DNA of 44,416 bases from Escherichia phage UHP65: the sequence record PQ511047.1; one strand, written 5' to 3'. Both the position numbers and the translations under genes were made by a program. The notes beneath the pieces were generated by a model. The model searched no databases and was not told where the DNA came from. It worked only from the letters and a program-made list of their open reading frames with translations. This document shows positions 37,962-38,655 of the stretch, piece by piece; the stretch's first letter is position 1, and every line of letters starts with the position of its first letter.

Positions 37962-38638
37962 TTATGCGGGGTTCTGCTGCGCCATCTCATCAAGCGCGAT
38001 TCGCTCCATTAGCTTGATATCTTTAAACGCGCGCTGCTCGTTTTCGATACCGTGCATCTTAAATAACCACTCCAGCACGCCGTAGTCGATGCCGTATGCG
38101 CCACCAAAACCGGTGCGCCATTGCGTGGAACAATCTGTGAAGACTGCGACTACCTTCGCGTTGTCGGGCCATAGCGCAACAGGCGGACAAACATCTTCGG
38201 GGGCCGCACCCCATAAACTTGCGGCTAAATCTTCGGAGGGTGGCGGCGGGCCATAAAAGCGTCGCGCCGCCTCAATTAGTTTTTTTCACGCAACCCCATC
38301 AGTTCGAGATAGTACGACGTGTGGAACACACCGAACGCGCGTGGATAGTTGACCACCAGGCGGCGGACGTTCTCCGCGTTAAATTCGTCCGGCAGATTCC
38401 AGCCTTCTGCGACGTGCATGATGGCCTCGACCATAACGTTAAAGCCGTCCGGGTCATTGTCGTCATATTCCGACAACTTGCGCTCCGTGTCCTGCATGGT
38501 CTGCGAAAATTCGTCGATAGGGCGGTGGCGTACTGTAAACGTCATTTTGCCCGGTTCGTTTTCGCCTGGGCGCGGGATCTCAATCGGTAGCTTAAAGGTA
38601 GGCTTAGGGTCAAGTGTGAAAAGTGGTGCTTTAGCCAT
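37962..38638 (-). CDS. tail assembly chaperone GT-like fusion by programmed -1 frameshift at 38279-38285
   Basis: -1 frame after A_AAA_AAC stays open 106 codons (LIEAARRFYGPPPP...DEMAQQNPA) to TAA 37962-37964; that frame has no start codon of its own. Confidence 0.6.
38276..38638 (-). CDS. tail assembly chaperone (lambda G-like)
   Basis: ATG 38638 with GGAGA RBS; ends ...REKN-TAA with slippery A_AAA_AAC heptamer; between major tail and tape measure. Confidence 0.7.
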   Translation of the reverse strand: MAKAPLFTLDPKPTFKLPIEIPRPGENEPGKMTFTVRHRPIDEFSQTMQDTERKLSEYDDNDPDGFNVMVEAIMHVAEGWNLPDEFNAENVRRLVVNYPRAFGVFHTSYYLELMGLREKN

Positions 38639-38655
38639 TGTAGTATTCTCCAATA

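Follow-up and report, generated by a model that had tools for sequence, protein, structure and literature searches.

A probable programmed -1 frameshift at a conserved slip site yields a G/GT pair of tail assembly chaperones in Escherichia phage UHP65 and its Dhillonvirus relatives

The window analysed here, a stretch of 44,416 nucleotides from Escherichia phage UHP65, carries on its minus strand a group of tail genes in the order tail terminator, tail tube, G, T and tape measure. A 2-kb stretch around the G/T locus is matched at 93-96% identity by 158 phage records, nearly all of them Escherichia phages of the genus Dhillonvirus (HK578-like siphophages). The tail terminator gene (39494-39916, minus strand) matches Phage_tail_terminator_5, and the upstream neighbour of G (38708..39433, minus strand) encodes the major tail, or tail tube, protein, which matches Pfam Phage_tail_3 (E 3.9e-33) and is called major tail protein in the annotation of relatives. 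Downstream lies the gene of the chaperones' partner, the tape measure protein (34937..37579, minus strand; Pfam TMP_2, E 1.8e-42, and Tape_meas_lam_C, E 9.5e-14). These matches on either side bear out the position between major tail and tape measure genes which a preliminary description of this DNA had assigned to the locus. Between the tail tube gene and G there is a strong terminator-like feature, a GC hairpin followed by a T run (38661..38677, minus strand; GGGGCCAGCACGGCCCC TTTTTTATTG), and the annotation of phage Sanco has a terminator in the corresponding place; with such a hairpin the chaperone and tape measure genes would be transcribed less than the tube protein gene. As for host names, among the public records that match 37500-39500, those called Campylobacter phage A144, A123 and A120, and some named after Acinetobacter, Sodalis and Salmonella, either share about 95% identity with E. 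coli Dhillonvirus or resemble coliphages of the T1-like group, which suggests mislabelled hosts or contaminating phages in these submissions.

G is a tail assembly chaperone of 120 aa, encoded by a 363-nt CDS (38276..38638, minus strand). It matches Pfam PF08748 (Phage_TAC_4) over model positions 1-124 of 124 (E 1.4e-23; 83.9 bits against a cutoff of 21.1), a full-length match that confirms the earlier reading of this ORF as a G-like chaperone, and it also matches phrog_569 in PHROGs (E 9.8e-41); NCBIfam has no model for G or for T. Judged from the sequence, the start of G is likely the ATG at 38638, which has GGAG upstream. The annotations of relatives give the same 363-nt CDS with an equivalent ATG start, used by all annotated relatives, and the end at 38653 given in the preliminary description turns out to be a TTG taken from a mechanical list of ORFs. 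The gene ends with TAA at 38278..38276, where the 0 frame reads ...TTG CGT GAA AAA AAC TAA TTG AGG... and is translated as ...GLREKN before the stop.

The T segment (37962..38279, minus strand) lies in the -1 frame relative to G. It opens with CTA at 38279 and runs for 105 sense codons to a TAA at 37964..37962, so the 106 open codons counted previously are correct with the stop included. Three-frame translation shows a TGA (38286..38288, minus strand) that shuts the -1 frame just two codons ahead of where the shift would occur; from this stop the translation proceeds through KKLIEAARRFYGPPPP to ...DEMAQQNPA and the final stop. The frame indeed lacks a start of its own, as had been proposed: there is none of ATG, GTG or TTG in its first 67 codons, and the first of these to occur, a GTG at codon 68, leaves 38 aa. 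A profile search with the -1 frame product, suggested by the preliminary description as a check against families of T domains, returned a complete match to Pfam PF08809 (DUF1799; model positions 1-80 of 80, E 2.8e-21, 76.0 bits against a cutoff of 26), with the domain occupying T residues 25-101, and T also matches phrog_680 in PHROGs (E 9e-31). Furthermore, G matches positions 1-107 and T positions 147-212 of a single profile of 213 positions, phrog_17368; because it covers both segments, this profile must have been built from fused G-T products, and such fusions therefore exist in annotated phages.

Structure prediction adds to this picture. An AlphaFold model of T, made with an alignment of 100 family members, reached a pLDDT of 94.9. 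Neither a sequence search nor a Foldseek search with the model found a match in the PDB, where the T fold has no solved structure. The model does align to the C-terminal half of the tape measure chaperone of Serratia phage Scapp (236 aa), as well as to the C-terminal halves of the tape measure chaperones of Klebsiella phage Solomon (210 aa) and Caulobacter phage CcrColossus (268 aa), and the lengths of these three proteins (210-268 aa) fit frameshift products.

The variation of T also indicates that it is read. In 21 Dhillonvirus copies, which comprise 19 distinct T sequences, the 101 variable columns are distributed over codon positions 1, 2 and 3 of the T frame as 22, 10 and 69. Among variable codons read in this frame, 47 are all-synonymous and 25 change the amino acid; the two other frames yield ratios of 5 to 69 and 2 to 72, along with 3-8 stops. 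This excess of third-position variation points to a start-less -1 frame that is translated and under purifying selection, and the selection spans all 105 codons of T, the start-less part included.

At the junction of the two frames lies the slippery heptamer A_AAA_AAC (38279..38285, minus strand; 0 frame GAA AAA AAC), directly abutted by the 0-frame TAA of G (38276..38278, minus strand); the canonical heptamer that had been noticed at the stop of G is read there as described, within ...TTG CGT GAA AAA AAC TAA. With the TGA at 38288..38286 upstream and the stop of G downstream, the two frames can be joined only within 7 nt, inside the heptamer. In other words, an X_XXY_YYZ heptamer is present in the overlap, in the correct 0-frame phase, at the sole site where the frames can join. 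Taken by itself, this pattern is not beyond chance. The window contains 5 copies of AAAAAAC against 8.4 expected, and an open off-frame run of 105 codons, matched by about 0.7% of the off-frame runs in the genome and by 1.4% of shuffles, is rare but not extraordinary, so that chance does not exclude the bare pattern. What makes the site significant is instead that T matches a domain, is under purifying selection and is conserved in relatives.

To describe that conservation we used 87 loci, namely 79 from a G-T alignment scan of viral contigs and eight annotated records, most of which share only 37-45% protein identity with the proteins of the window. Relative to G, T occupies the -1 frame in 84 of these 87 loci, many of them close to one another (41 distinct downstream sequences, a handful of clades), and in 83 of the 84 AAAAAAC is followed directly by a stop, be it TAA, TGA or TAG. 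The preliminary description held that a -1 frame without conservation in related phages would refute frameshifting; the frame proved conserved, and the same heptamer recurs in distant relatives. A_AAA_AAC with a stop is found in a 58%-identical relative (L089), in a GC-rich and distant one (L091), and in Tunavirus IME18, Kyungwonvirus CS01 and Braunvirinae IMM-001. Ten further loci were examined beyond the 87, variants with G_GGA_AAC among them. These variants, in which GGA AAC is followed by TGA or TAG, belong to distant loci (L092, L094, L095 and L096) from a Ralstonia phage, a Vibrio phage and two metagenomic contigs. In every locus examined the 0-frame stop abuts the last codon of G, and all three stop codons are used. 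Additionally, a homologue search with the fused GT found three proteins only, two homologues of G and one of T, and their contigs supplied two further conserved slip sites.

The three exceptions among the 87 loci are of two kinds. Two IMG/VR contigs (L024:1820-1835 and L025:1820-1835) have eight A, not seven, at the slip site, which fuses G and T in frame (REKKLRQV...), and L025 shows a later frame break within T; either errors in sequencing the homopolymer or genuine mutations of defective prophages could account for this. In the remaining one (L069:1820-2300), G terminates in ...GAAAAAAATTAG, and an integrase-like ORF (MPKKTTQLTNTEIKSAKATDSD...) stands in place of the missing T region, probably through insertion of an island into a prophage tail module or rearrangement of that module. 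A separate observation concerns the Klebsiella phages Sanco (L008:1780-1795) and RCIP0100 (L097), which have the same chaperone family without a canonical heptamer. In their lineages G ends with GCA AAA GTT TAA or CAA AAG CAC TAA, implying slippage of a single tRNA-Lys on A_AAA_G or A_AAG, still near the stop.

Downstream of the slip site, folding predicts a hairpin of the form GGCGGCG...CGCCGCC (38242..38271, minus strand) that starts 7 nt 3' of the heptamer and is a candidate stimulator of frameshifting. Considered alone, the window hairpin is marginal (-17.1 kcal/mol, z -1.5 to -1.7), with 15 of 200 shuffles folding as well. Hairpins with unrelated stems nevertheless occur in the identical 7-nt register in the distant L092 (z -4.5), in U136B (L005; z -4.3), in L091 (z -3.3) and in L089 (z -3.3), which makes five lineages with the window included. 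The base of the stem also covaries across clades, one pair being CG in 18 cases, GC in 9 and UA in 7, above shuffled and slid controls; several other lineages have a weak hairpin or none. On this comparative evidence, the hairpin probably stimulates frameshifting. When 37400-38800 was scanned against Rfam, only chance matches below threshold appeared, with no curated frameshift element at the slip site. We also considered a weak Shine-Dalgarno-like GGGGU located 7 nt upstream of the heptamer (six nt between) as a stimulator of the dnaX type and set it aside, as it coincides with a conserved Gly codon and is inseparable from protein constraint.

Taken together, domains, synteny, selection and the conserved register agree with the programmed -1 frameshift and GT-type chaperone put forward in the preliminary description, and we consider it very probable that G and GT are made by ribosomal -1 slippage on A_AAA_AAC, with T read only as the C-terminal part of GT. 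Most ribosomes translating G would terminate at the TAA and release the 120-aa G. A minority would slip back by one nucleotide on the heptamer (38285..38279), the peptidyl-tRNA-Lys moving from AAA to AAA and the tRNA-Asn from AAC to AAA, and would then read CTA ATT GAG... for 105 more codons, giving a GT of 225 aa with the junction ...GLREKN-LIEAARR.... The hairpin 7 nt downstream probably helps this slip and the abutting stop may help too. By analogy with lambda gpG and gpGT, the G part would coat the tape measure protein, and the rare T domain, with its DUF1799 fold, would recruit the tail tube protein and thereby allow polymerisation of the tube around the tape measure; the virion would retain neither G nor GT. 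We infer the slippage and its efficiency from the sequence, and the binding of G to the tape measure protein and of T to the major tail protein from the lambda analogy. A low efficiency would suit such a role. In E. coli, A_AAA_AAC is a much weaker shifter than A_AAA_AAG, and lambda tail assembly needs about one GT per 30 G (PMC5009743); given this low requirement, a weak A_AAA_AAC site fits the function.

Within this framework, the slip can be pictured in more than one way. A possible, though not a probable, reading retains the same GT and the same site but invokes a shifty stop, that is, a single-tRNA slip in competition with termination: once AAC has been decoded normally, and while the A site stands empty at TAA and awaits a release factor, the tRNA-Asn in the P site would slip from AAC to AAA and allow CTA to be read. 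Stop codons 3' of slippery runs are known stimulators ('shifty stops', cited in PMC5009743), and the stop that abuts G in every locus examined, whichever of the three codons is used, is what this model would lead one to expect; in lambda, by contrast, the stop of G is six codons beyond the slip site. On the other hand, the codon before AAC covaries so as to keep a proper heptamer (A_AAA or G_GGA), for which a one-tRNA model has no need, and the abutting stop may merely reflect selection on the C-terminus of G. The tandem and the shifty-stop routes give an identical GT, the junction peptide REKNLIEAARR being expected from tandem or P-site slippage alike, and sequence therefore cannot discriminate between them. 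A bolder version of the role of the stop is that the signal of the Phage_TAC_4/DUF1799 family constitutes a fixed tripartite unit of X_XXA_AAC, an abutting stop and a hairpin 7 nt downstream, with the GT:G ratio set by release factors. Slow termination at the abutting stop would then offer a second, P-site-only chance to slip, an arrangement that differs from lambda, whose stop is six codons away; we regard this proposal as speculative and unlikely.

The other two alternatives dispense with ribosomal slippage altogether. RNA polymerase could stutter on the seven A (38286..38280) and add one A to some mRNAs, in which case GT would be encoded in frame and made by standard translation, with the junction ...REKK-LIEAARR.... 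The homopolymer is present, and the two contigs with eight A at the DNA level (L024 and L025) encode exactly such a fusion, which indicates that the run is prone to indels and that the fusion is viable as a reading frame. Yet the loci with G_GGA_AAC (L092, L094, L095 and L096) and those with A_AAG-type sites (L097 and L008) keep T in the -1 frame without any long homopolymer, and conservation of the C at heptamer position 7 and of the abutting stop is something that polymerase slippage does not need. Known cases of programmed transcriptional slippage in bacteria involve longer runs, of about nine; the run here numbers only seven A and is not the long, conserved homopolymeric run characteristic of that class. 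The replacement of A_AAA by G_GGA with AAC retained favours ribosomal tandem slippage over polymerase slippage on an A run, so we judge transcriptional slippage very unlikely as the source of GT and at most a minor contributor in the phage studied here. The least credible of the readings, to our mind nearly out of the question, involves no recoding: T would be made by independent initiation, or the -1 ORF would be a decaying remnant. Gene callers and many GenBank records do place short stand-alone ORFs in the T frame, and a few relatives (P0024 and P0034) have a Met near the start of T. A search of cluster representatives with T found 1113, the best 150 of which are all proteins of 38-150 aa, with no natural in-frame G-T fusion among these 150. 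Against this stand the 67 codons that contain no ATG, GTG or TTG although the domain occupies residues 25-101, the strong purifying selection across the whole of the 105 codons, and the family-wide conservation of both the -1 register and the slip site.

Ribosomal slippage at this locus finds its place in a well-known class, the G/GT tail assembly chaperone frameshifts of long-tailed phages (Levin 1993, Xu 2004, as cited in PMC5009743). The position between tube and tape measure genes, the -1 overlap without a start of its own, the phased heptamer and the conserved arrangement are all found here, and the feature is an ordinary G/GT frameshift that is unannotated in the sampled Dhillonvirus genomes. 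The closest known systems are the pairs of T1-like phages (Drexlerviridae), namely Escherichia phage U136B (U136B_045/046) and Klebsiella phage Sanco (CPT_Sanco_038/039), which belong to the same G and T families as the pair in the window (37-42% and 34-36% identity). In both phages the pair is located between the tail tube and tape measure genes with T in the -1 frame, and U136B also shares the A_AAA_AAC that abuts a TAA and the hairpin 7 nt downstream. Both pairs were deposited as joined CDSs that bear a frameshift label, and for U136B the manual annotation is described in the genome announcement (PMC8104045). The phage studied here differs from the two in its genus, Dhillonvirus, in the TGA that closes the -1 frame immediately before the heptamer, and in its spacing, as T and the tape measure gene lie nearly end to end in U136B and Sanco but about 380 bp apart here, with non-coding repeats in between; Sanco, furthermore, has a non-heptamer site of the A_AAA_G type.

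Lambda offers a more distant comparison (gpG/gpGT; Levin et al. 1993; Xu, Hendrix and Duda 2004, 2013, 2014, as cited in PMC5009743). Its genes V, G, T and H are arranged alike, a -1 shift takes place towards the 3' end of G, and T is without its own start; a low GT:G ratio, expected also for the phage studied here, and the chaperone logic are shared as well. The proteins themselves belong to other families, lambda G and T being PF06894 (Phage_TAC_2) and PF06223 (Phage_tail_T) and the pair in the window Phage_TAC_4 and DUF1799 with no match to the two lambda families, and no similarity to the T of the window was detectable by BLASTP (E 0.23) or hhalign (probability 1%), so lambda is a functional analogue only. 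Its slip site differs as well: the lambda heptamer is G_GGA_AAG with the stop of G six codons downstream, whereas here the stop abuts the heptamer. The heptamer A_AAA_AAC has been used elsewhere, as it serves the -1 frameshift of the g-t tail chaperone pair in the haloarchaeal virus HCTV-2 (PMC5009743) and -1 frameshifting at retroviral and coronaviral sites, although the hosts and translation systems of all these viruses are unrelated to those of the phage described here.

A further peculiarity of the region is the spacer between T and the tape measure gene, which measures about 382 bp (37580-37961). A 127-aa ORF at 37579..37962 was considered as an extra gene and rejected: it has no Pfam match, and the spacer varies in length among relatives from 374 to 406 bp by indels that are not multiples of three. 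For both reasons we regard the spacer as non-coding. It contains 12 copies of a TGTCCCGYTT-like motif, which occurs 27 times in the whole window against 5.8 expected, as well as two 36-nt repeats, each with an 18-bp palindrome (AAACGGGACGTCCCGTTT). A second cluster of the motif lies in the region 10205-10400, with five copies at 10265-10369, and the adjoining 10215-10262 is the reverse complement of 37660-37705 in the spacer. The reverse-complement match and the second cluster indicate that the window contains two copies of a module of about 150-200 bp, inverted relative to each other; this module may serve as an array of sites for a regulator, or as a promoter or terminator.

Public annotation reflects little of this arrangement. 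The T sequence is carried by about 157 public genomes, and a joined GT CDS was found neither in the eight Dhillonvirus records inspected nor in a sample of 60 out of the 157, for which the feature names at T were examined. These records show G alone, or G along with meaningless fragments labelled 'hypothetical protein', 'DUF1799 domain-containing protein', 'major tail protein' or 'tail length tape measure protein'. One example is phage Ioannina (L101, 626-871), in which the T-frame fragment is named 'major tail protein'. Other misannotated loci include L007, L102, L098 and L099, and several RefSeq records call G or T fragments 'tail length tape measure protein'. Our searches of the literature on frameshifting or chaperones in Dhillonvirus or HK578 found no description of the slip site, and those on DUF1799 found a single paper, on a Variovorax phage. 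In published proteomics of EE09 (PMC10673088), the part of the table considered here lists the G homologue as detected by mass spectrometry in lysates with 2 peptides and contains no T-frame peptide; the database searched did not include GT, and since its sequence was absent GT could not have been detected in that search.

The value of our finding lies mainly in annotation, complemented by a tidy comparative series of slip sites; no new question arises from it. Existing records would be corrected by including the 225-aa GT, which proteomic searches could then find. Should the tripartite unit considered above prove true, the GT:G ratio would be set by release-factor competition and could respond to host physiology. 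Overall, the near-universal rule of paired G and GT chaperones is confirmed for one more genus of siphophages.
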